This document shows positions 2,426 to 46,789 of a stretch of DNA of 46,959 nucleotides, one piece after another (position 1 is the stretch's first letter; every line of letters begins with the position of its first letter). Under the pieces are notes generated by a model. It was given only the letters and a program-made list of their open reading frames with translations. It ran no database searches and was not told the origin of the DNA. Location: the UHGV virus genome UHGV-1362024, one strand, 5' to 3'. Source of the stretch: a virus. A program made the position numbers and the translations under genes.

Positions 2426-4906
2426 TCATGCAACAGGGTTGGTGTAGGCGTACATGGCGTCATTGTACTCAGTTACTGTGAGAGACACTGTGCCATCTGT
2501 ACCTGGGGTTTTCTGGCTGACTGTCCATAACGTCGAGTCAAGCTCAACCTCTGTGGAGATAGCATATCTTGATTCCGACTGAACATTAACACCGTCAAAA
2601 ATGTTTAACTCGAAGTCAGATGGCAATGCGCACTCGAACGTGTTCAAACCGGTAATAGTGCAGGTAAGGCGTTCTGATACATTCCCATTGGCACCGGTGA
2701 TAACCACAAATAGGCCGCTTCCTGCCGTGAGCTGTTCACTGGTGGTAAATACGTTTCCAGACCTTGATCGGATAACGCCCGTCTGCTGCACTGAATCATA
2801 AATGTCGACAACAGAAATCATATCGCCAACGTTCACCCACTCACCATCAGCAAGTGCTTTTATCTCCATTCCACGGCGTGAGTACATGAGACGGTTGCAC
2901 TCAAGCATGGCCCGGTCTGTTGCCTGATGCAGGTTTCGAACATATAGCATGTCGAATTTTTTCGGTTTGGTTGGCTCTCCCGGCTCTATACCAGAAGTGC
3001 CAACTTTATAATAAACATAAGCCTGTTTGTTGGTGTTTGGGTCGCGGTACTGAACACTTACGCCATCATATGACCCCGGCAAAGTCATGTCATAAGACAT
3101 TTTATAGCCATCGGCCTTTGTGTTTCTGGTATTGAATACGGTTTCAGGAGTTGATTTTTCCTCATCCCTTGAGAAAGACAAGACACCATCATCCCAAAAA
3201 ACCGTTACGCGAGCTGCATCACAGATGGTCTGAATTCGCTCACCAATGGACTTATCCTCATCGTCAAAGGTGTAATCAAAATACCCAAGGCGCTCATCAG
3301 GCAGCGCATCAGCTATTTCATAGAGCCTTCCCACGTCAATGGTGCTTTCAGGCTGACCAGCGGTAATAAGCCAGTTATGCAGCACTGAATCTGCGAAACT
3401 TCTTGATGGACTTAACGTATAGTCGACTGTCCCGGCTGTTCTGTTGTATCCAATAGTCCAGCGGGTGATCAGCGCATTATATTTGCGCTCAGTAACTGAT
3501 GTTGGCTGAAGCGTAGCCTTCACTGTCACTTTAACAAGAGTGTCATCAGGATAAACCACATTCTCGCGGATGTTGATAGCGTGCGCCGCCTGCAACGTTA
3601 CGCGGTTGCCAGAGTTTGAGTTGTTTGTCCTTTCAATGCTGATGGCATACTTAGCCAGCCCATAAGCAGGAGTTAACTTATACGTGCGATAATAGTTTTT
3701 GGTTGTCTGATTGAATGGGTTGTCAATACTGTCTGCAAGCTGCTCCTCGGTTCCTGGAATGGCGTCTCCATTATCATCAACCGCCCATACCTTGATCAGA
3801 TAATCCGCCGTGCCACTGGTTGGCCCAAGCTCAGACTGAACATGAACCCATACCTGCGTCGATTCCACGGCTCCAACATATGGGCCAACAACGAGCGCCT
3901 CATTATCCACAATCTGGAAATAAGTATTGTTGATGGTTGCGCCGCTCAGGTTGCCAATATTTGCGCCAGTCAGGTTATTGAAGGTGAAATTATAAAAATA
4001 CTGAATATCAGGAATGACGCCTGTCTCAGTTTCCTCAGCTGAAATGATGTTGCCGCTGAGTTCGATATTTTTTGTTACAGGGCCAGATGTTGTATTGTAA
4101 GTAATATTTATTGTTAATGTTACTGAGTGTGGCAAAGATAGCCCCATAAAGTAATCAAAATCAGTATTTTTTGGTATGACCATTAACAGCTGACCGCCAG
4201 CATAATCACCGCTGGTAACAGATGTTGTTGTTGCAGACTCAACAGGAGTTGTATCCGATTCGTTTAGCCCTGGAACCTCCTGACCATCAAGCCCGTCGAA
4301 CTGATAAGGCTCAATGATTTGTCCAATCACATCACCTGGATTGTAGATGACATGAGTGGCGCCTGGCAGAGAGCCAAGGTTAGTTTCCGCATAGCGAACC
4401 GATGAAATGGTATATTTCCCAAGGCCAAAATTCATGAACTCGGTGACGTACTTCAGATCGTCAATGTATTCAAAAAGCGATTCCTGAATCAGGTCTGGAA
4501 ATGCCCTTACCTGACCGAAGTTGTCAGGTCTTGCCTCTCCGTTTCGCGCAATATTGGTTTGCGATTTCAGGCTGTTATTGGGTGATTCAACAGTCGTGCC
4601 GGTGCTGGTTGATGGCGTTGATGCTTTTGGCAGCAGAAAAGAAAGAACCTTAGTTACAGGCTTGAGTATCGTGCTGATAAGGTCGCCAATGGCGCCGCGA
4701 GGCTGACAGTAAATGTTAACAATATCGTTTTGCTTTAACGATATCGACAATTCATCATCAGGGCCAAAAATGCGGCCATTCAGTGCAATCCTGATATCAG
4801 ATGGAAGGCCGGAATTCTCCAGCCATCTCCACAGATTAGTGCCAGCAGGGACATTACCCGTCTCTTTTGGAACACCTGGCATCTTCTGAATGTGAATAAC
4901 CGGCAT
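2426..4906 (-). CDS. Tail tip / host-specificity protein (lambda gpJ-like central fibre), possibly with a gpI-like N-terminal segment
   Basis: 826-aa ORF downstream of the K/L/M-like genes in canonical lambda-like order. Its 5' end overlaps the K-like ORF by about 50 nt. Confidence 0.7.
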
Positions 4907-5333
4907 AAGTCAGGAACCTTAATTTTGTTGATAATTTTTCGAGTGTTTTAAGGCGGTCTGTCTTGACTGCCGTTTTCTCTCGCGCATGCAGTATTTTATC
5001 ACGCCCCCACCATAGCGCGACATGTACCGGATGACTCCCTCTATAGGCAACCACCACATCGCCAGCTTTTGGCTGTTCGGTATCTTTCCAGAATGAAACT
5101 TCTCCATTGAAACAAGTGACAAAATCGCCGCCACTTGAATATGAATTATCATGATGGACATTAACATTCATGCAAAGGCGATAGAACAGCACCACCAAAC
5201 CCCAGCAGTCCACTGCATCAACGTGACAACATCTGTCGACGTATGGCTTTCCAAGCATCATCCTTTCAAAATCGTCAAACGGTACGCAGTCCGGGAAATT
5301 CTGTGATGTCATAAAGTTTTGCCACGTTGCCAT
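4854..5333 (-). CDS. Tail assembly protein with NlpC/P60 peptidase fold (lambda gpK-like); true start probably internal (near 5261 or 5312)
   Basis: Catalytic-type Cys context [11 protein letters not shown] and downstream His (HVALWWG, ILHA). It sits between the L-like and J-like genes. The listed start overlaps the upstream gene by 58 nt. Confidence 0.7.
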
Positions 5334-37318: not shown

Positions 37319-37411
37319 TCACCTCACAATAAACCAGATGGCTAACGCAACAGCAATCCAGAATGCCAACAGTGATAAGGCAATCAGTCTGCGGATGATG
37401 TAGGGTTTCAC
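37319..37411 (-). CDS. Small membrane peptide (30 aa, GTG start)
   Basis: Unlisted ORF VKPYIIRRLIALSLLAFWIAVALAIWFIVR with RBS GGAGGT; GTGA-coupled to the upstream gene. Confidence 0.25.
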   Translation of the reverse strand: MKPYIIRRLIALSLLAFWIAVALAIWFIVR

Positions 37412-38349
37412 GACTTACCTCCGTTGAGCATGGCGGCGCGGCAGGCGTCATAAGATTCTCGCATCGCGTCTTTTACCCAGCCAAGTGGCTTATTACCGCT
37501 AAGTTCCAGCCATTCATCGAACGTTGGCACTACCGGTGCTGACTGGAACGGCTTCCTACCCTTCACCCAGGTAACCAGCGCCTGAATATGCTTTTCACAT
37601 GTTGCCGCCAGCATCTCATCTGATTCAGGCGCTGCTATACCGGCGTTACTGAGGGCCAAACGCAGACCATTCGGCACTACCGGAGCTGGCTGTGCGTGGC
37701 GATAGAGCTTCGTCCCGTATGGCATTTGCTGAATGCCGACAAGCGGTCTAATCTCTCGCTCCCCAAAATCTTCGGGGTCACCATAAATTGAAACCACTTC
37801 TGCCACCGGCTCCCCGTCCCTTGCGGACAGCGCCAGTTCAGCAAGCTGCAGGTCAGCCAATATTTCTTCGCGCGCGCTTTCGAATGCTGTCTGTCGTGAT
37901 GCCATTTTCAGAGCTTTGGCGATGCTGTGGTTTGCCTTGCTCATTTGGCCCCCCCCCTCGCGCAGCTGCTTGGCGAACTTAAGCGCCTCTTCGGTCGCGC
38001 CATTCCAGCGGCCGCCCCTACTGGAAACCCACTCCTCCACCCCATCAGCCTTAATACCGGCTACGATGCGATCGGTGGCGGGGGTCGTTTCTTGCGGAGA
38101 TACAGCAATACGAATGGTTTCTAGTGCCGGGTCAGTTTCAACTGTTGGCACCTTGATATAACCTAACTGCACCCCGTTCATGATGAACATGCGGCGATCA
38201 TCGCTCGTCGCCTTCAGCGCTATATTCTCCACAGCCAGCTGAACGCACAGCTTTGCAACCTTGAGGTATTTTTCCTCTTTGATTGAGAGTTCACCACCGC
38301 CCTCAAGGTTTTTAATAATTTCATGAACTTCGTTAATTTCGATATCCAT
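37408..38349 (-). CDS. Hypothetical protein (313 aa)
   Basis: Listed ORF; no recognised motif. Confidence 0.45.
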   Translation of the reverse strand: MDIEINEVHEIIKNLEGGGELSIKEEKYLKVAKLCVQLAVENIALKATSDDRRMFIMNGVQLGYIKVPTVETDPALETIRIAVSPQETTPATDRIVAGIKADGVEEWVSSRGGRWNGATEEALKFAKQLREGGGQMSKANHSIAKALKMASRQTAFESAREEILADLQLAELALSARDGEPVAEVVSIYGDPEDFGEREIRPLVGIQQMPYGTKLYRHAQPAPVVPNGLRLALSNAGIAAPESDEMLAATCEKHIQALVTWVKGRKPFQSAPVVPTFDEWLELSGNKPLGWVKDAMRESYDACRAAMLNGGKS

Positions 38350-38355
38350 AAATCC

Positions 38356-38634
38356 TCACTTAACCGCCTGTAAACGCTCAAGCTCACGCATCAGTGCAGA
38401 TACACGGCGTTGCCGCAAAGTCTCTGCATGCTCTTTTGCCTGTTGCTCATCAAGCCAGTATTCACCACGTTTAAAGTAAACATCGCCAACCACAGCAACC
38501 TGCCCATCAGCAAATAGCTGTGCGCTTTCGTACTTCTGAATGCCACGGGTCAGCGCGTACTTCGTGACCCATATAGTCTCAGCGCTTGCCGCGTTAGCGA
38601 TAACCAGTAAAGCCACTGCCAGTAATTTATTCAT
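38356..38634 (-). CDS. Small secreted protein (92 aa, signal peptide MNKLLAVALLVIANAASA)
   Basis: Listed ORF; predicted periplasmic. Confidence 0.45.
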   Translation of the reverse strand: MNKLLAVALLVIANAASAETIWVTKYALTRGIQKYESAQLFADGQVAVVGDVYFKRGEYWLDEQQAKEHAETLRQRRVSALMRELERLQAVK

Positions 38635-38649
38635 TGTTGCTAAACCGGT

Positions 38650-38835
38650 TTAGTTTCCACCAGATGACACGATAACCTGCTCAAGCACTCTATGCTTACC
38701 TTCACCACTAAAAACTCGACAGACGCGCTTACCGTTGCTGTATGCATGCATTGCCTGCGCCATCATAAAGTTTTGCGCCTTAACTGCGCCCATTTCAGGC
38801 TCCAGTTGAGTGCGCGTGTAGATTGCTTTGGTCAT
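38650..38835 (-). CDS. Small hypothetical protein (61 aa)
   Basis: Listed ORF. Confidence 0.35.
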   Translation of the reverse strand: MTKAIYTRTQLEPEMGAVKAQNFMMAQAMHAYSNGKRVCRVFSGEGKHRVLEQVIVSSGGN

Positions 38836-38847
38836 TTTATCCCTCCA

Positions 38848-38964
38848 TCAAAAACCAAAGTCGCCAGTAAACTGAGCAAGCTCTTCGCCATGCTCATCCA
38901 CCACATAGCCATCGAATACAACACCACCATTTTCGTCTTGCTGTTTTTTATCTTCCATCTTCAT
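38848..38964 (-). CDS. Small acidic hypothetical protein (38 aa)
   Basis: Unlisted ORF MKMEDKKQQDENGGVVFDGYVVDEHGEELAQFTGDFGF with RBS AGAGGTGA; first gene after promoter copy 7. Confidence 0.25.
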   Translation of the reverse strand: MKMEDKKQQDENGGVVFDGYVVDEHGEELAQFTGDFGF

Positions 38965-38988
38965 CACCTCTTTGTTGTTGGTGTGGTA

Positions 38989-39017
38989 ACTATACGATGG
39001 CGCTCAATCTACGTCAA
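38989..39017 (-). promoter_or_regulatory. Minus-strand promoter (copy 7): TTGACGTAGATTGA-N10-TATAGT
   Basis: The reverse complement reads TTGACGtagattgagcgccatcgTATAGT; TTGACG-17-TATAGT is a near-consensus sigma70 promoter. Confidence 0.6.
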
Positions 39018-39039
39018 TATGATGATGAAAATAAATAAA

Positions 39040-39470
39040 CAATAGCAAACTAATAGTTTTGTAACGCAAGTTACTATATCTCTAAGAGGTTTTAAAGTCT
39101 ATTGCTTATATATAAATAATTAGTAGGTATTGAAGGAGAAAAAAGGTCTTATAGGGGCCTCTATCGTCCCGAACGTTTTTTAGGTCACGACTTTAGAGAA
39201 TCCAGATATGACGCGGCTTGCAGGGCGATTTTGCTTCTAAAGTCTATTTTTTGTGTGGGGGGGGGTATTTTTTGTTATGAATTTTATTTTTTGATAGGGG
39301 GGGGGGTCCAAAAAAGTAGACTTTAGAGCTGTTTTTTGGTGTTTTTCTTTTAAGAATCAATAACTTCCTAAAGACTTTTTGAATGTCGTTCTAAAGTCTG
39401 TAAAACATTAGAACTAAATAAAATCATAAACTTAGATAAAGTTACTACTTTTAACGTGTTTGGTCAACTT
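39040..39470. repeat. AT-rich non-coding region with six copies of CTAAAGTCTA / TAGACTTTAG in both orientations and two homopolymeric G tracts (G9, G11); candidate origin, packaging or regulatory region
   Basis: Motif copies near 39097, 39190, 39239, 39317, 39371 and 39393. An inverted pair CTAAAGTCTA...TAGACTTTAG flanks the G9 and G11 tracts. No ORFs. Confidence 0.4.
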
Positions 39471-39481
39471 CAATCAAACAA

Positions 39482-39503
39482 AAAGCCACCGTCTAGGTGG
39501 CTT
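39482..39503 (-). terminator. Rho-independent terminator (AAGCCACCTAGACGGTGGCTTTTTG on minus strand) ending the leftward replication operon
   Basis: Hairpin plus T-run just past the stop at 39508. Confidence 0.65.
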
Positions 39504-39507
39504 TGCT

Positions 39508-39885
39508 TTAGTTATATGCACAATCCCTTTCTCTCCTCGCGTCAAGGTGTCTCTTCAGTTCTTCCCTGTTGACGCCAAACGCATCGCAGAAGTTTGCCAC
39601 GGCATTTCCAGCGAAATGCTCATCGGGAGTCCACTTGCCGCACTTTTTCGCCACATCACGATAAGGCTGTGAAATGAAAGCGGTGTTGCCCTTGTAGTTT
39701 ATGCGGCAGAAAAATACATCATCCTCTATGCTGTGACCCATATTGCATCGGAACACTGGCACGCTGTGATAGTAGACTTCCATCAGGTTGCGTCCAGTCA
39801 TCATGTTTAGCGCTGCTTCTGGCTCGCACTCAGCTTCATACTGGCTGTATGCAAAAATATCGCTTTGCTGAATTACGCGGATCAT
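39508..39885 (-). CDS. Hypothetical protein (125 aa), Cys/His-rich
   Basis: Coupled downstream of the primase-helicase gene. Confidence 0.45.
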   Translation of the reverse strand: MIRVIQQSDIFAYSQYEAECEPEAALNMMTGRNLMEVYYHSVPVFRCNMGHSIEDDVFFCRINYKGNTAFISQPYRDVAKKCGKWTPDEHFAGNAVANFCDAFGVNREELKRHLDARRERDCAYN

Positions 39886-42215
39886 ATGCTTACCTCATCA
39901 TTAACTAATTTGTAGATGATGGCCCGGTTGCTTGTACGCTTGGCCTCTTTATCCTCAATAACCTCGCCGTCTTCAATGAGCTTGTCCAGCATGCGCTCAG
40001 AGTCAGCTCGTTTATAGTTTCCATCCTTGGCCACGCCAATGATGATCGCTTTGCGGGCCATTCCACGCTTGACGTACTCACGGACAAGCGATTCAAGCCC
40101 TTCTACGCGCCTGTCGTTGCTCTTGGAGTTAGCCCCTGACAAACTATCAGCCCGCATCATTAAATCGCTTGTTGATTTGATGGTGAGCGCAACGGCGTAC
40201 CGTAGATGCTCCATTGTAATAACGCCAGTATCGCAGGCAAGAATCCCGGATATCTTCGCCACCTTTACAGCGCATCGGTTAATCAACGGTTGATAACCCG
40301 TGCCATTTTCTACGTGCTGACGGGCAATCATCTTGAGCCATGAAAAAAACTCTTTTGCCATCGCTGAAACCTCTGGCGTTGCCTTTATTGCTCGCCTTTC
40401 TTTGCTGCTTATGATTGATTCAGTCCAGTTTTTGTAACCAGCAGTAGTGCCATTTATTATTGTTTTTATAGTCATTTGCATGGGCATTGGCAGGTCGCAG
40501 TATTCCACGTCTTCGTTTTCGTCTGCGATTTCCTGAAGCTCCTGCATAATCATGGCGCGACCCATGAGACCTGATTTGATGTTCTCTTCGGTAATGAGTT
40601 TTTTGAACTGGTCATCCGTAGATACACCAAACATGGAAAAGAAAGGATTTCGTATCGCACCATCTATACGACGAATCACATCTTCAAACTGACGCTTAAT
40701 ATCGACAGGATCTGCTTGCAACTCGTTTTCTTCGATCATCATCATGAGAGTGCCAAGCCTTTTTTCAAACTGCTTGACGTATTCATCAGTGATGCGCTGG
40801 TCACAGTACAGTATTTCTGCTGTGTATGACTCCATTAGTGCGCCAGCCGTGGCCATGTTGTACTCGCTGACCTTTTGTCCAACCACACTGCCTAGTTTGA
40901 TGCCAATCTCATCCATAATGAGGTTAAACATCTGATTAGCTGCCAGCCCCTCATATATGGCTCTTTCAGAACGGATTTTACCGGCCACTGTCTTGCTGAG
41001 TCCTGAGCAGTCGATAATTTTTTGCAGGGCCGCAAGCACGTCACCCTTTCCTGAGCCAGACCCGGCGATGCCAATAGAAAAAAGATTTGGTACAGCCTTA
41101 CGATTGGTAAGGTAAATATCTGAAGAGGCGCCGCAGATGATTGATGCCGCATGGATGGCTGCCAGAGCTGCAAGATATTCTCTTTTCTCAGCGCAGTTTC
41201 TGTTAATCCACTCCGTCAACTTTCCCACGAACCCTGGCGGAAATCGCACATCAACAGATTTGTAATCGACGGGGCATTCTCCAACACCCATCGCCATTTT
41301 TTTCTCAAACTTCTCAAGCAATGCAATTTCTTCTGGAGATGCCTGAAATGATACCGCACGAACCCATCCACCCTCTTCAGCCAGATGAACAAGAGTAGCG
41401 GCAGTGACACGGTCTCCGTTTCCCTTACCGTATGAATGCCAGTGGTAATCCATGTCAGATGGGTCATACTTTGAGAAGCGTGATGACCATGAGTCCCACA
41501 GCTCAAATCCGTTACCATCTGTTGCCTCATGAATTGCCATGCCAACTCGAATCCAGTCATCATAATCTTCACCACAGTTAATGTGGTTCAGCATGTCCTG
41601 AAGTTCCTGCATGGAAAACGATTCGGCACCGAGTGAAAATTCCTCGCGCTCTGCTCGCTGCAATAGCTCAACAAGTGACGACGGAGGCTCTGTTATGGAT
41701 GACGGAGAGCCATGCTCAGCTTCATAAAAGTTGCCTGATTTGTGGAATGAGCCACATCCTATAACGAAACCTGATGACTTGAAGTCAATTCCTTTGAATC
41801 TCTTGTCGTGAGAATTGAGCTTCACTCCATTTGGCAATTTATAATAAATATGCTTTCCGCCACCACCAGTGTTCACCACAAATCCTGATTCATCGGCAAG
41901 CTCCATATCAAGCGCCTCGCAAAGCGCCTCATACCCTTCATTGCCACCATTTCGCGGGTCAACATCCACGACAAGATAGCCATCGACCAGCACACCGAAG
42001 CTGTTTAGCTGGCCAAACTCGCGCATGTTTTCGAGTTGGTCATCTTCCCATATGATTCCACATTGCCAGTTTGACATTATGGGATGCTTGCCTGCTGCGT
42101 GGCATTCAGGACGCTCGCAGGTGCATTTTCTGTCATGATCCATCGGGTAGATTCCTATAACAGGGAATCCGGCGGCGTGATAATCCTTGTATCCTGTCAT
42201 TATTTCGCTCTCCAT
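39882..42215 (-). CDS. DNA primase-polymerase / helicase (prim-pol N-terminal domain plus D5/DUF3987-type helicase region)
   Basis: 777 aa. N-terminal bifunctional prim-pol-like region (GFPVIGIYPMD...GKHPIMSNWQ...VVDVDPRNGG...GGGGKHIYYKL); C-terminal P-loop GIAGSGSGKGDV. Confidence 0.8.
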   Translation of the reverse strand: MESEIMTGYKDYHAAGFPVIGIYPMDHDRKCTCERPECHAAGKHPIMSNWQCGIIWEDDQLENMREFGQLNSFGVLVDGYLVVDVDPRNGGNEGYEALCEALDMELADESGFVVNTGGGGKHIYYKLPNGVKLNSHDKRFKGIDFKSSGFVIGCGSFHKSGNFYEAEHGSPSSITEPPSSLVELLQRAEREEFSLGAESFSMQELQDMLNHINCGEDYDDWIRVGMAIHEATDGNGFELWDSWSSRFSKYDPSDMDYHWHSYGKGNGDRVTAATLVHLAEEGGWVRAVSFQASPEEIALLEKFEKKMAMGVGECPVDYKSVDVRFPPGFVGKLTEWINRNCAEKREYLAALAAIHAASIICGASSDIYLTNRKAVPNLFSIGIAGSGSGKGDVLAALQKIIDCSGLSKTVAGKIRSERAIYEGLAANQMFNLIMDEIGIKLGSVVGQKVSEYNMATAGALMESYTAEILYCDQRITDEYVKQFEKRLGTLMMMIEENELQADPVDIKRQFEDVIRRIDGAIRNPFFSMFGVSTDDQFKKLITEENIKSGLMGRAMIMQELQEIADENEDVEYCDLPMPMQMTIKTIINGTTAGYKNWTESIISSKERRAIKATPEVSAMAKEFFSWLKMIARQHVENGTGYQPLINRCAVKVAKISGILACDTGVITMEHLRYAVALTIKSTSDLMMRADSLSGANSKSNDRRVEGLESLVREYVKRGMARKAIIIGVAKDGNYKRADSERMLDKLIEDGEVIEDKEAKRTSNRAIIYKLVNDEVSI

Positions 42216-44471: not shown

Positions 44472-46334
44472 ATGAAATATACGCTAAGGCCATACCAGCA
44501 GGAAGCGGTTGACGCGGCTATGGCACATATCAGAAGCACAATTTCATCATGCGTAATAATTCTCCCTACTGGCGCAGGCAAGTCAATGGTTGTCGCTGAG
44601 CTTGCAGCACGCATCTATGAGATGAGTAAAAAGCGTGTGCTTTGCATTGCTCCAACCGGGGAACTTGTGACACAGAATCGATCTAAATACCTTTTAACTG
44701 GCGAGCCAGCAAGCATGTTCAGCGCCAAGGCTGGCCCTAAAAATCTGCGCCACCCTGTTGTTTTTGGCTCTCCTGTCACAATCAAAAACTCTATTGAAAT
44801 GTTCGGCGATAAATATGGAGCTGTAATTATTGACGAGTGCGACGGAATCACGCCAACCATTAAATTTATTATTAATGAGATGAGGCGTCGCAACCCAAAG
44901 CTGCGCATCATTGGCATGACCGCAACGCCTTATCGCCTTGGTACGGGGTACATATTTAAAGATCATTACCAGTCCGGCCCCACTGATGAAGAGACAGCCA
45001 TTGATCCTTACTATGACAAGGTTGTTTATGAGCTTGAGGCAAAATTCCTGATTGATAATGGCTATCTGACTCCTCCAGTTACTGAGCACGTAGAAGAAGA
45101 ATATGATACCTCTGGACTTGAGAAGGATAAGCTTGGGCGTTATACAACGGCATCGGTAGAGCGCGCCATGGTTGGAAAAGGACGCAAGACGTCTCGCATT
45201 GTTGAGGATATCGTCAGGCGATCAGTGAATCGCCGGGGAACTATGATTTTCGCCAGCACGAAAAAGCATGCCATGGAGATTATGGAATCTCTGCCTCCTG
45301 GTAGTTATAGCTATGTTTTCGGTGATATGCCTACTGCTGAGCGCAATAAGGCGATATCAGATTTTAAGGCGCAGAAGGTTAAATACATTGTCAACCAGAA
45401 TATCCTTACGGTTGGCGTCGATGTGCCACATTGCGATCATATTGCTGTAATGCGCGCCACAGAGTCGCCGCGCCTGTATCAGCAGATAATAGGTCGTGGA
45501 ACCAGGCTATACGAAGGTAAGGAAAACTTTCTCGTTAGCGACTATGCAGGAAACATAGAGCGTCATTTTGCTGAGACAGGAGACCTGTTTACTCCTGAGA
45601 TTAAAGCAACACGAAAAAAACCATCTGTTCCAATGGAAGTAAAATGCCCATCGTGCGGATTTGTTAATGAATTTGGAGTGCGTCCAAATCCAGAAGGCCT
45701 TGAGATGGACAGTGAGGGATATTGGCTTGATCTATCTGGTGACAGAATAATGGTAGAAATTTATGATAAATCTGGCGAAAAGATAGGGCAAAAGCCAATG
45801 CCCGGACACTTTGGGCGCCGCTGTAAGAACTATATTATGGTTGGTGCGCTGCGTGAAATGCGTCGCTGCACGTATAAATGGTCATTCAAAGAGTGCCCTG
45901 ATTGTGGTTTTGAAAATGATATTGCTGCTCGTAACTGCGTGAGCTGCAAAGCAGAAATTATTGATCCAAACAAGAAGCTACAGGAAGAGGCTGCAAGACT
46001 TGATGCTGCGCCAGATGCAACCAAGCAATCAAAAGTTACAATGATGAGCATAACTCGCCACTATGTAAGCAGTGGTGATGATATGTTGGTAGTTAAGTTT
46101 GCTATTGAGCAGTCGCCATGGTTCGTTAACAAATTCTTTAAACCCATGGCAGAAAAGACGTGGCAAAGAAGAGAATGGGAAGACTTCAGTATTAAATCTT
46201 TTGGAGAGGTACTGGAAATAGATGAAGCACTATCTAGAAGAGAAGATGCCACACATCCTACTGCCATTATGTTCAGAAAGGATAAAGGCAGCAAATATTA
46301 CAATGTGAAAGGAATGTATTGGGGTGAGTTATGA
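44472..46334 (+). CDS. Superfamily II DEAD/DEAH-type helicase with C-terminal zinc-ribbon region
   Basis: Motif I LPTGAGKS, motif II IIDECD, arginine-finger-type QQIIGRGTR, C-terminal CPSCG...CPDCG...CVSCK. RBS CGAGAGGACA. Confidence 0.85.
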   Translation: MKYTLRPYQQEAVDAAMAHIRSTISSCVIILPTGAGKSMVVAELAARIYEMSKKRVLCIAPTGELVTQNRSKYLLTGEPASMFSAKAGPKNLRHPVVFGSPVTIKNSIEMFGDKYGAVIIDECDGITPTIKFIINEMRRRNPKLRIIGMTATPYRLGTGYIFKDHYQSGPTDEETAIDPYYDKVVYELEAKFLIDNGYLTPPVTEHVEEEYDTSGLEKDKLGRYTTASVERAMVGKGRKTSRIVEDIVRRSVNRRGTMIFASTKKHAMEIMESLPPGSYSYVFGDMPTAERNKAISDFKAQKVKYIVNQNILTVGVDVPHCDHIAVMRATESPRLYQQIIGRGTRLYEGKENFLVSDYAGNIERHFAETGDLFTPEIKATRKKPSVPMEVKCPSCGFVNEFGVRPNPEGLEMDSEGYWLDLSGDRIMVEIYDKSGEKIGQKPMPGHFGRRCKNYIMVGALREMRRCTYKWSFKECPDCGFENDIAARNCVSCKAEIIDPNKKLQEEAARLDAAPDATKQSKVTMMSITRHYVSSGDDMLVVKFAIEQSPWFVNKFFKPMAEKTWQRREWEDFSIKSFGEVLEIDEALSRREDATHPTAIMFRKDKGSKYYNVKGMYWGEL

Positions 46335-46789
46335 TTTTTCCTGAGTGGTTAAAGATTTATGGTGAAAAGGACTACCGCAATAAAAAATGTCCTGTAGAAG
46401 ATGCTGAACTTGTAACATTCATAAATCAGTTGAAGAGAATGTATCCTGACAGTTTTGGGCGCCTTGTTCTTCACGTCCCAAACGAGGGGAAGAGAAGAGC
46501 GCACGAAGTTAATAATCTAAAAAAGAAGGGAGCTTTAAACAAAGGAGCTTCAGATATAATAATCCCTGGGAACCCATCACTTGTCATTGAGATGAAGAGG
46601 AGAGACCATACACTTTGCGAATGGGAGGATGGTCAGCTTGAGTATCTTGAGGCAAGTAAAAAAGTAGGGTGCTTTGTGTGCGTATGCCTTGGATGGGAAG
46701 CTGCCATGATGGCATTCAATGACTGGAGAGCAACGCATTACCCTTTGAAAAAGCCTCATGATAAGAGCATACAAATTGATAGTTTTTGA
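46331..46789 (+). CDS. VRR-NUC domain nuclease (PD-(D/E)xK fold)
   Basis: GASDIIIPGNPSLVIEMKRRD motif typical of VRR-NUC (D...E.K). ATGA-coupled to the helicase. Confidence 0.65.
   Translation: MIFPEWLKIYGEKDYRNKKCPVEDAELVTFINQLKRMYPDSFGRLVLHVPNEGKRRAHEVNNLKKKGALNKGASDIIIPGNPSLVIEMKRRDHTLCEWEDGQLEYLEASKKVGCFVCVCLGWEAAMMAFNDWRATHYPLKKPHDKSIQIDSF

Follow-up and report, generated by a model that had tools for sequence, protein, structure and literature searches.

A candidate replication origin with opposed repeats, paired G.C blocks and an AT-rich core beside the primase-helicase gene of a Roufvirus-like Klebsiella phage

The Rep and PriRep proteins of Staphylococcus aureus pathogenicity islands (SaPI) are self-loading helicases that read iterons by means of a C-terminal winged helix, and the origin immediately downstream of rep has iterons in opposite orientations around an AT-rich centre (PMC9371898). 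We analyzed a stretch of viral DNA, UHGV virus genome UHGV-1362024 (46,959 bp, here called the window), which represents a Roufvirus-like Klebsiella siphophage whose structural half is 94% identical to KpV2811. In this window, a non-coding segment at 39040-39470 lies close to the gene for a 777-amino-acid (aa) primase-helicase. We consider it likely that the segment is the replication origin of the phage and that it is used by the adjacent primase-helicase. The results are in silico and cover how the element is built, how far relatives conserve it, the way its repeats co-vary with the wing of the helicase, and the predicted fold of that protein; from these we infer repeat binding, melting of the core, origin activity and the role of the G.C blocks. 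The origin reading is favoured because the segment has repeats in both orientations, an AT-rich core and a primase-helicase gene beside it, because it is conserved and its repeats co-vary with the wing, and because the protein resembles an initiator and the SaPI systems offer a precedent.

Comparison with described origins

By analogy, the SaPI Rep/PriRep origin is the closest precedent. In both systems, short repeats adjoin the primase-helicase gene, an AT-rich centre has opposed repeats on each side, and the C-terminal winged helix of the helicase reads the repeats (a predicted property in the phage) with a specificity that differs between elements. SaPI5 also has a fused Pri-Rep (PMC9371898). 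On the other hand, the phage helicase is DUF3987/MCM-like and not a SaPI Rep, its primase is a PrimPol, an archaeo-eukaryotic primase (AEP), and its repeats measure 8-10 bp compared with 5-6 bp in SaPI. In addition, one extra open reading frame (ORF) stands between gene and origin in the phage, and G.C homopolymer blocks bound the core. The host element here is a virulent Gram-negative siphophage, whereas SaPI is a satellite.

Archaeal origins with origin recognition boxes (ORB) likewise have inverted repeats flanking an AT-rich unwinding region by the initiator gene, a specificity that links repeat and initiator, and an MCM-type helicase; the G.C blocks of the phage segment recall the G-strings of haloarchaea (PMC4010727). 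However, the neighbours of the phage segment encode the PrimPol-MCM-like helicase, a Cro-like protein and a 125-aa ORF (ORF125), with no Orc1/Cdc6 gene among them, and it is the helicase that carries the presumed reader. The run also differs from the archaeal G-string in lying 4-13 bp from the repeat across lineages, on a strand that is not fixed relative to the repeat, and in being missing from several lineages. Membership in the archaeal ORB/G-string family was rejected, as there is no adjacent Orc1/Cdc6 and no fixed G-string polarity at the repeat ends.

The alpha protein of satellite phage P4 is a primase and a helicase in one chain and has, at its C terminus, a winged-helix origin-binding domain for short repeats in direct and inverted orientation (ori and crr). 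The alpha primase, however, is of the DnaG/Toprim type and its helicase of the SF3 type, and P4 needs a second site, crr. A further difference is that the 777-aa protein had no match at E 0.01 or better in a sequence search of solved structures. Lambda-type origins also place repeated initiator sites by an AT-rich region, in a module that swaps together with the initiator among mosaic relatives. Unlike the segment described here, the lambda origin lies within the O gene, and O is not a helicase but recruits the host DnaB via P.

Set against these systems, the segment is a probable origin of familiar logic, found with a helicase family for which the literature that we located describes no origins, and with a recurrent G.C-block feature. 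Roufvirus-like and Cedarrivervirus-like phages that infect Klebsiella, E. coli, Shigella and Yersinia are in development for therapy, and their replication is undescribed in the literature that we found. The analysis offers for them a concrete candidate origin, a candidate initiator, and a five-residue candidate specificity determinant that is paired with repeat sequences, a pairing that can be tested. The locus could also serve as a small bacterial model for the self-loading of an MCM-like helicase, fused to a PrimPol, on double-stranded DNA.

Anatomy of the segment

The preliminary description of this DNA had depicted the segment as AT-rich and free of ORFs, as was also found here. No ORF of at least 50 aa is present in 39046-39459, and the most AT-rich 200 bp of the window (39261-39460, 29% GC) lie inside the segment. 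Only non-ATG ORFs of 31 and 38 aa run across the homopolymers, and they cannot be conserved, since the run lengths in relatives differ by non-multiples of three. In phage 6991, a 93-aa coding sequence on the opposite strand (6991_0070, L002:3205-3483) is annotated over both G runs; because the window has no equivalent ORF and the run lengths differ in the same manner, this annotation is probably spurious.

The motif TAAAGTC occurs eight times in the 46,959 bp, and five of the eight copies are found in the 306 bp of 39093-39398, where about 0.03 would be expected. The longer 10-mer CTAAAGTCTA, when searched at no more than one mismatch, has four matches in the window (1.5 expected window-wide), and all four fall within the segment. 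Six copies of the 10-mer had been reported earlier, of which only two are exact. These are the inner repeats, copy 3 on the plus strand at 39237-39246 (inner left) and copy 4 on the minus strand at 39317-39326 (inner right), both facing the core. Copy 1 (TTAAAGTCTA, plus strand, 39092-39101) and copy 6 (CTAAAGTCTG, plus strand, 39391-39400) each have one mismatch, and the latter is kept in the alignment with the close relatives VLCpiS13c (S13c), vB_KpnP_XY3 (XY3) and phage 6991. The remaining two copies have two mismatches each: copy 2 (CTAAAGTCGT, minus strand, 39187-39196), which was found by searching for the TAAAGTC core and retains it exactly, and copy 5 (CTAAAGACTT, plus strand, 39368-39377), which was found by repeat search and alignment and reads CTAAAGTCAT in phage 6991.

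An inverted pair had been described around the G runs, and we found it as a 17-nt inverted repeat (39236-39252 and 39311-39327, 94% complementary) which consists of the inner repeats plus their T6/A6 tracts. A DNA hairpin involving this inverted repeat gave a z score of -4.55. Of the two homopolymers claimed, G9 is present on the plus strand at 39257-39265, while the second is G10 (plus strand, 39297-39306) and not G11; the first run is 9-11 long in relatives and the second 7-10 long in close relatives. Between these G.C blocks lies an AT-rich core of 31 bp with 10% GC (39266-39296), a candidate unwinding element, which ranks as the 34th least stable among the 46,929 31-mers of the window by nearest-neighbour stability.

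This layout suggests how initiation might proceed. The C-terminal winged helix of the PrimPol/MCM-like helicase would read the CTAAAGTCTA-type repeats, with the inner repeats 3 and 4 facing each other over the 31-bp core between G9 and G10. Helicase rings would assemble on both inverted half-sites and open the core, after which the fused PrimPol would prime and the host polymerase would extend. The G.C blocks would probably act at the level of the duplex as boundaries that set the extent of the opening; alternatively, they may serve as secondary or shape-read contacts.

Inspection of the segment by eye, with no formal test, revealed nothing convincing in the way of DnaA or integration host factor (IHF) sites, and no match to Rfam was found in 38500-40000 at E values up to 1.

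Recurrence in relatives and pairing with the winged helix

We compared the locus with a diverged set of phages and metagenomic contigs whose primase-helicases are 60-79% identical to that of the window. The same layout was present in eleven diverged relatives, with examples in ECO111, Sf11, YX3973, P400, L028-L032, L034 and Pseudoalteromonas phage H103, and adjacency of the repeat region and the helicase gene was seen in at least ten relatives. All of the diverged set have a non-coding gap of 450-950 bp beside the gene, which is AT-rich except in L029 (GC 0.43, equal to that of its locus). Each diverged phage carries a repeat sequence of its own, which usually forms an inverted pair about an AT-rich spacer of 30-60 bp. 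The repeat is CGGGAAGCG in Sf11, L028, L029 and L034, CTATTTCCCGT in ECO111, ACCCTAAATGCCA in YX3973, CCTATTT(A/G)CCC in L030, CTCTGTAAA in L032, TTAGAAA/CCTAAA in P400 and L035, and CTAAAGTC in L031 and the window. Even in H103, with a protein only about 36% identical, GGGATTGATAGTAGATAG...CTATCTACTATCAATCCC is found downstream of the gene. The gap lies downstream of the gene in the window-type order and upstream of it in the Sf11-type order, in which the PrimPol-ORF125 cassette is inverted. This inversion separates the window from L018, L020, L022, L028-L030 and L034, and the repeat region stays beside the promoter of the small-gene operon.

The proposed reader of the repeats is the C-terminal end of the 777-aa protein (39882-42215, minus strand). 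Pfam found only Prim-Pol, PriCT_2 and DUF3987 domains in this protein, and the top Foldseek matches of its ATPase part were MCM2-7 and archaeal MCM. In an AlphaFold2 model (pLDDT, the predicted local distance difference test, 85.7), the C-terminal end is made up of three helices and a beta hairpin, that is, a winged helix (aa 700-777, codons at 39885-40118, minus strand; wing motif RTSNRAI), and the variable residues RTSNRA are located at its wing. The domain make-up and the model agree with the published description of DUF3987 proteins as MCM-like helicases with a winged helix-turn-helix at the C terminus (PMC4889955), and a PriCT-DUF3987 protein has been shown experimentally to be a 5'-3' helicase (PMC11724360). 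A search of plasmid proteins for a characterised replicon with this helicase returned only a 27% partial PrimPol match. Homology of the 777-aa helicase to SaPI Rep was considered and rejected: Pfam gave the three domains above alone, the best structural matches were MCM, and no solved structure was recovered by sequence.

The variable part of the helicase is its last 60 aa. The helicases of Sf11, ECO111 and YX3973 are 94-98% identical over aa 1-712 (98-100% over aa 301-660) and 77-83% identical over the last 60 aa, and the repeats of the three phages differ. Conversely, the protein bodies of Sf11, L028 and L029 show identities of only 70-77%, yet these phages have the wing SHNVI and the repeat CGGGAAGCG in common; the window and L031, with 68% identical bodies, have the wing SNRAI and the repeat CTAAAGTC in common. 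In general, the repeat class changes together with the five-residue wing motif (SNRAI, SHNVI, SNAVx and SNKAV being the motifs paired with repeat classes). In the Sf11-type order, more than 2 kb of near-identical sequence separates the wing codons from the repeats, and neither simple linkage nor one recombination tract accounts for the pairing.

The pairing also held for genomes outside the initial comparison. For P0006, the wing SHNVI predicted the repeat CGGGAAGCG, and the locus has four copies of GGAAGCG, all of them in the region, together with a C7...G5 core, which confirmed the prediction. For P0001, with the wing SNRAI, the confirmation was weaker, as two AAAGTC and several CTAAAG copies were found in a locus whose right half is replaced (the form is described below). 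From the sequence comparison and the model, we infer that the winged helix of the 777-aa helicase specifically recognises the repeats. An origin beside the primase-helicase gene had been proposed in the preliminary description, and the comparison of relatives supports it: the same layout lies by the same gene in diverged phages, and the repeat co-varies with the C-terminal wing.

The Cro-like, ORF125-like and gp1-like proteins were each considered as readers of the repeats and rejected, as none follows the repeat class. Sf11 gp1 (L020:267-482) and its homologues in L018, L022, L028-L030 and L034 are ORFs of about 72 aa that separate the repeat region from the primase-helicase gene. They are highly variable, with 26-72% identity among otherwise close phages, and do not track the repeat class.

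The close relatives show which parts of the element are preserved. The segment is 94% identical in S13c and XY3 and 78% identical in phage 6991, and in the alignment of the three the repeats and G runs stand out as conserved islands. In the comparison with 6991, 89% of the repeat positions and 89% of the G-run positions are identical, versus a background of 73% overall and 66% for the right half alone (Fisher p = 0.0035 and 0.0005).

As for the homopolymers themselves, the caveat that they may be assembly errors proved only partly apt. The runs are real, being seen in close relatives in six or more independent assemblies, while their exact lengths are uncertain or variable. In near-identical genomes the first run is 9, 10 or 11 long and the second 7, 9 or 10. 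A slippage-prone regulatory element had also been suggested; the variation in length between relatives agrees with slippage, and a regulatory consequence was not evident. Variable lengths, the error-prone nature of homopolymers and the lack of runs in some lineages would all fit runs without function, either assembly and sequencing artefacts or the product of neutral slippage in an AT-rich spacer. However, G/C runs of at least 7 number 14 in 6.1 kb of repeat regions compared with 3 in 123.6 kb of flanks (11 loci, not all independent), and the runs recur where the surrounding sequence is unalignable and persist in 6991 amid diverged neighbouring bases. Their spacing is also regular. Runs of at least six G/C are present inside the repeat region in nine lineages, and the spacer between paired runs is 31, 32, 33 (six times) or 39 bp with 10-24% GC, thus 31-33 bp in eight of the nine two-run relatives. 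A lack of function is, in our judgement, quite improbable, and the recurrent spacing of 31-33 bp hints at a rule that delimits origin melting.

The strand of the runs bears on another explanation, in which a G-quadruplex, or an R-loop stabilised by the runs, primes or triggers initiation. In the window and its closest relatives, the two runs share a strand, giving four G3 tracts, and at the origins of ColE1 and of mitochondria R-loops are stabilised by G-rich transcripts. However, the window clade has G...G, P400 has C...C (relative to the gene), ECO111 has G...C and L028/L029 have C...G, so that the run strand is not conserved (the two runs being on opposite strands in ECO111, L028 and L029), and the promoter scan revealed no convincing promoter that reads into the runs. 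We regard such a strand-specific structure as extremely unlikely. Since the strand differs among lineages, the conserved property would be a block of G.C pairs and not a G-rich strand. G-quadruplex, R-loop and cruciform were all rejected as general explanations of the runs, because neither strand nor pairing potential is conserved.

It is conceivable, though we find it doubtful, that a single origin design is used across the PrimPol/MCM-like self-loading helicases of phages. Inverted winged-helix sites, each followed by a G.C block on either strand, would limit a bubble of fixed size, 31-33 bp or about three helical turns, as a bacterial-virus counterpart of the archaeal ORB/G-string layout, and slippage of the runs would alter the spacing of the half-sites and so tune firing.

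Evidence against an origin, and the transcription and packaging alternatives

Several observations weigh against the origin reading or limit it. The G.C blocks are frequent but dispensable: no G/C runs are present in YX3973, L030 or L035, or in the close relatives with a replaced right half, and any role of the runs therefore cannot be essential to the family. The latter relatives (S13b, RSU-F4K5, L010-12, L017 and L036) keep only 39000-39225 of the region and lack both the G runs and the long inverted repeat, with looser AAAGTC/CTAAAG motifs remaining. In these relatives, which include several IMG/VR contigs, the primase-helicase is 97-99% identical and its C terminus identical to that of the window. 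A right half replaced beside an identical winged helix means that the precise core of the window is either dispensable or replaceable. The cumulative GC skew of the window turns at about 42.4 kb, with the direction of transcription, and not at the segment (skew being weak evidence in phages and uninformative for this site), and a second AT-rich control region is present at about 42.4-42.6 kb. Finally, repeat copy 1 overlaps a promoter-like -35 hexamer, and some repeat copies could be regulatory.

The last point leads to an explanation in terms of transcription, in which the repeats are operators for two tandem promoters, bound by the winged helix of the primase-helicase or by another regulator, and no replication starts at the segment. 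The promoters, both on the minus strand, are the strong promoter P1 (TTGACG-17-TATAGT, 38989-39017), which drives the leftward small-gene/terminase operon and forms the left boundary of the element, and the promoter-like P2 (TAGACT-17-TATAGT, 39073-39101). P1 (38986-39017) and P2 (39070-39101) have the extended -10 sequence TATAGTWAC in common, and the -35 hexamer of P2, TAGACT, coincides with repeat copy 1. Such control would also suit the position of the segment between an early and a later operon, the conserved 35-nt block GGTCTTATAGGGGCCTCTATCGTCCCGAACG at 39146-39180, and a stand-alone winged-helix gene that occurs in the region in related genomes and resembles a regulator. However, five of the six repeats are found 90-300 bp upstream of P2, where they surround the AT-rich core instead of covering promoter elements, and TAAAGTC is absent from the early divergent promoters near 42.4-42.6 kb. 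The Sf11-type genomes retain the design despite the inverted gene cassette, there is no correspondence between the Cro-like regulator and the repeat class, and a DNA reader borne on a helicase suits origin recognition (PMC9371898). An exclusively transcriptional role thus appears unlikely; a transcriptional role could, however, coexist with origin function.

The 35-nt block is common to all PrimPol-type close relatives and recognisable in L031. A hidden terminator or hairpin within it was rejected, as folding gave z scores of +0.65 to +0.74 and no stable hairpin.

The extra gene encodes about 190-210 aa on the opposite strand inside the repeat region, and is found at L004:4055-4630, L005:4077-4637, about 625-1285 of the printed stretch of L017, and L036:5728-6363. 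The L004 and L005 proteins align to the C-terminal domain of the primase-helicase, including the wing SNRAI/SNRTI (pairwise E = 2e-5 and 4e-4), and the L017 translation has the same wing motif; L036 is grouped with them by position and length only. Judged by these alignments, the stand-alone winged-helix protein could be an origin-binding regulator or a competitor.

Most Roufvirus relatives (e.g., ZX4, MK54 and pYD38-A) have a DnaG-type primase and a separate helicase instead of the primase-helicase, and the equivalent place is occupied by some 400 bp of unrelated, AT-rich non-coding DNA. In L006/L008 this region (4537-4928) has palindromes of its own, GGGGTAAAATTTACCCC and GGGGCAGGTTAATTGCCCC, and may be the origin or control region of those phages. 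The element marks a recombination-prone module boundary, and is also a homopolymer hotspot for assembly breaks.

Such breaks matter for the other function that had been proposed for the symmetric G-run structure, a packaging signal at which terminase recognises or cuts concatemers (a pac or cos site, or a terminal-repeat boundary). The segment heads the operon that holds the terminase gene, and a number of genome records have ends nearby: the XY3 record breaks at window 39435/39436, those of KpV2811, ZCKP8, ZC2 and ZCKp20p have their start or end roughly 200 bp away from the conserved promoter, and the Sf11 record has an exact terminal redundancy of 335 bp whose left end lies in a T8 run inside its own element. 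The T-rich tract between poly-C and poly-G runs also recalls the pac1 motif of herpesviruses, a resemblance only. Unlike pac1, however, the element tracks the helicase and not the terminase, and relatives are circularly permuted (PMC9412545).

The relatives with the closest TerL and upstream ORF (Tbat1_6, SCNJ1-C, MK54 and DP01, 88-89%) do not carry the element and have only 36-37 nt of the region in common with the window, while S13c combines a 94% identical element with a TerL of 74.5% identity. Co-variation with the helicase wing, as seen for the repeats, is not expected of a terminase site. In P400, which has the two-run design, Bal31 and ligation tests showed circularly permuted DNA with no cohesive ends (PMC9412545), and KlebP_265 and ZCKp20p are terminally redundant and permuted according to PhageTerm (PMC11769527, PMC9901506). 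The ends of IMG/VR contigs from near-identical phages are scattered, and homopolymers often break assemblies; the break in XY3 and the Sf11 redundancy are most simply assembly breaks at homopolymers. A packaging signal is accordingly very unlikely, and the terminase alternative of the preliminary description is not upheld. A cos or terminal-repeat end at the segment is likewise unlikely, and was rejected on the published permutation data (PMC9412545) and the failure of the element to follow the terminase.

In Sf11 itself, positions 46120-46454 of the record (L021) are an exact copy of its start (L020:1-335), with the boundary in the T8 of the Sf11 repeat/C8 element, and this redundancy is either an assembly overlap at the homopolymer or a real terminal repeat.

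Gene setting

The genes around the segment point leftward, in the order Cro-like gene, 777-aa primase-helicase, ORF125, terminator, non-coding segment, P1 and small genes, with the terminase gene about 3-4.5 kb further left within the small-gene operon. ORF125 (39508-39885, minus strand; ORF list and Pfam) is translationally coupled to the primase-helicase gene and kept within the module. The terminator scan placed an intrinsic terminator of the Cro-like/PrimPol-helicase/ORF125 operon at 39482-39504 on the minus strand (nine pairs, then a T run), and its hairpin had an RNA folding energy of -15.9 kcal/mol (z = -3.7). This terminator is the right boundary of the element; the segment starts 12 bp past it, and the helicase stop codon is about 410 bp away, with ORF125 as the one intervening ORF. 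At the other end, the flank at P1 (39000-39037) is conserved in all of the approximately 45 relatives.

The position given earlier, between the terminator of the primase/helicase operon and a promoter "copy 7", is correct insofar as the terminator and P1 are both present, and the label "copy 7" could not be verified. When the extended promoter sequence was searched for a family that would match this label, P2, 84 bp upstream of P1, was its one look-alike.

Elsewhere in the window, the only other G/C homopolymer of at least 7 is a C9 run at 37949-37957 (G9 on the coding minus strand), which lies inside a 313-aa ORF (37408-38349) and is a possible hotspot for frameshift or sequencing error.

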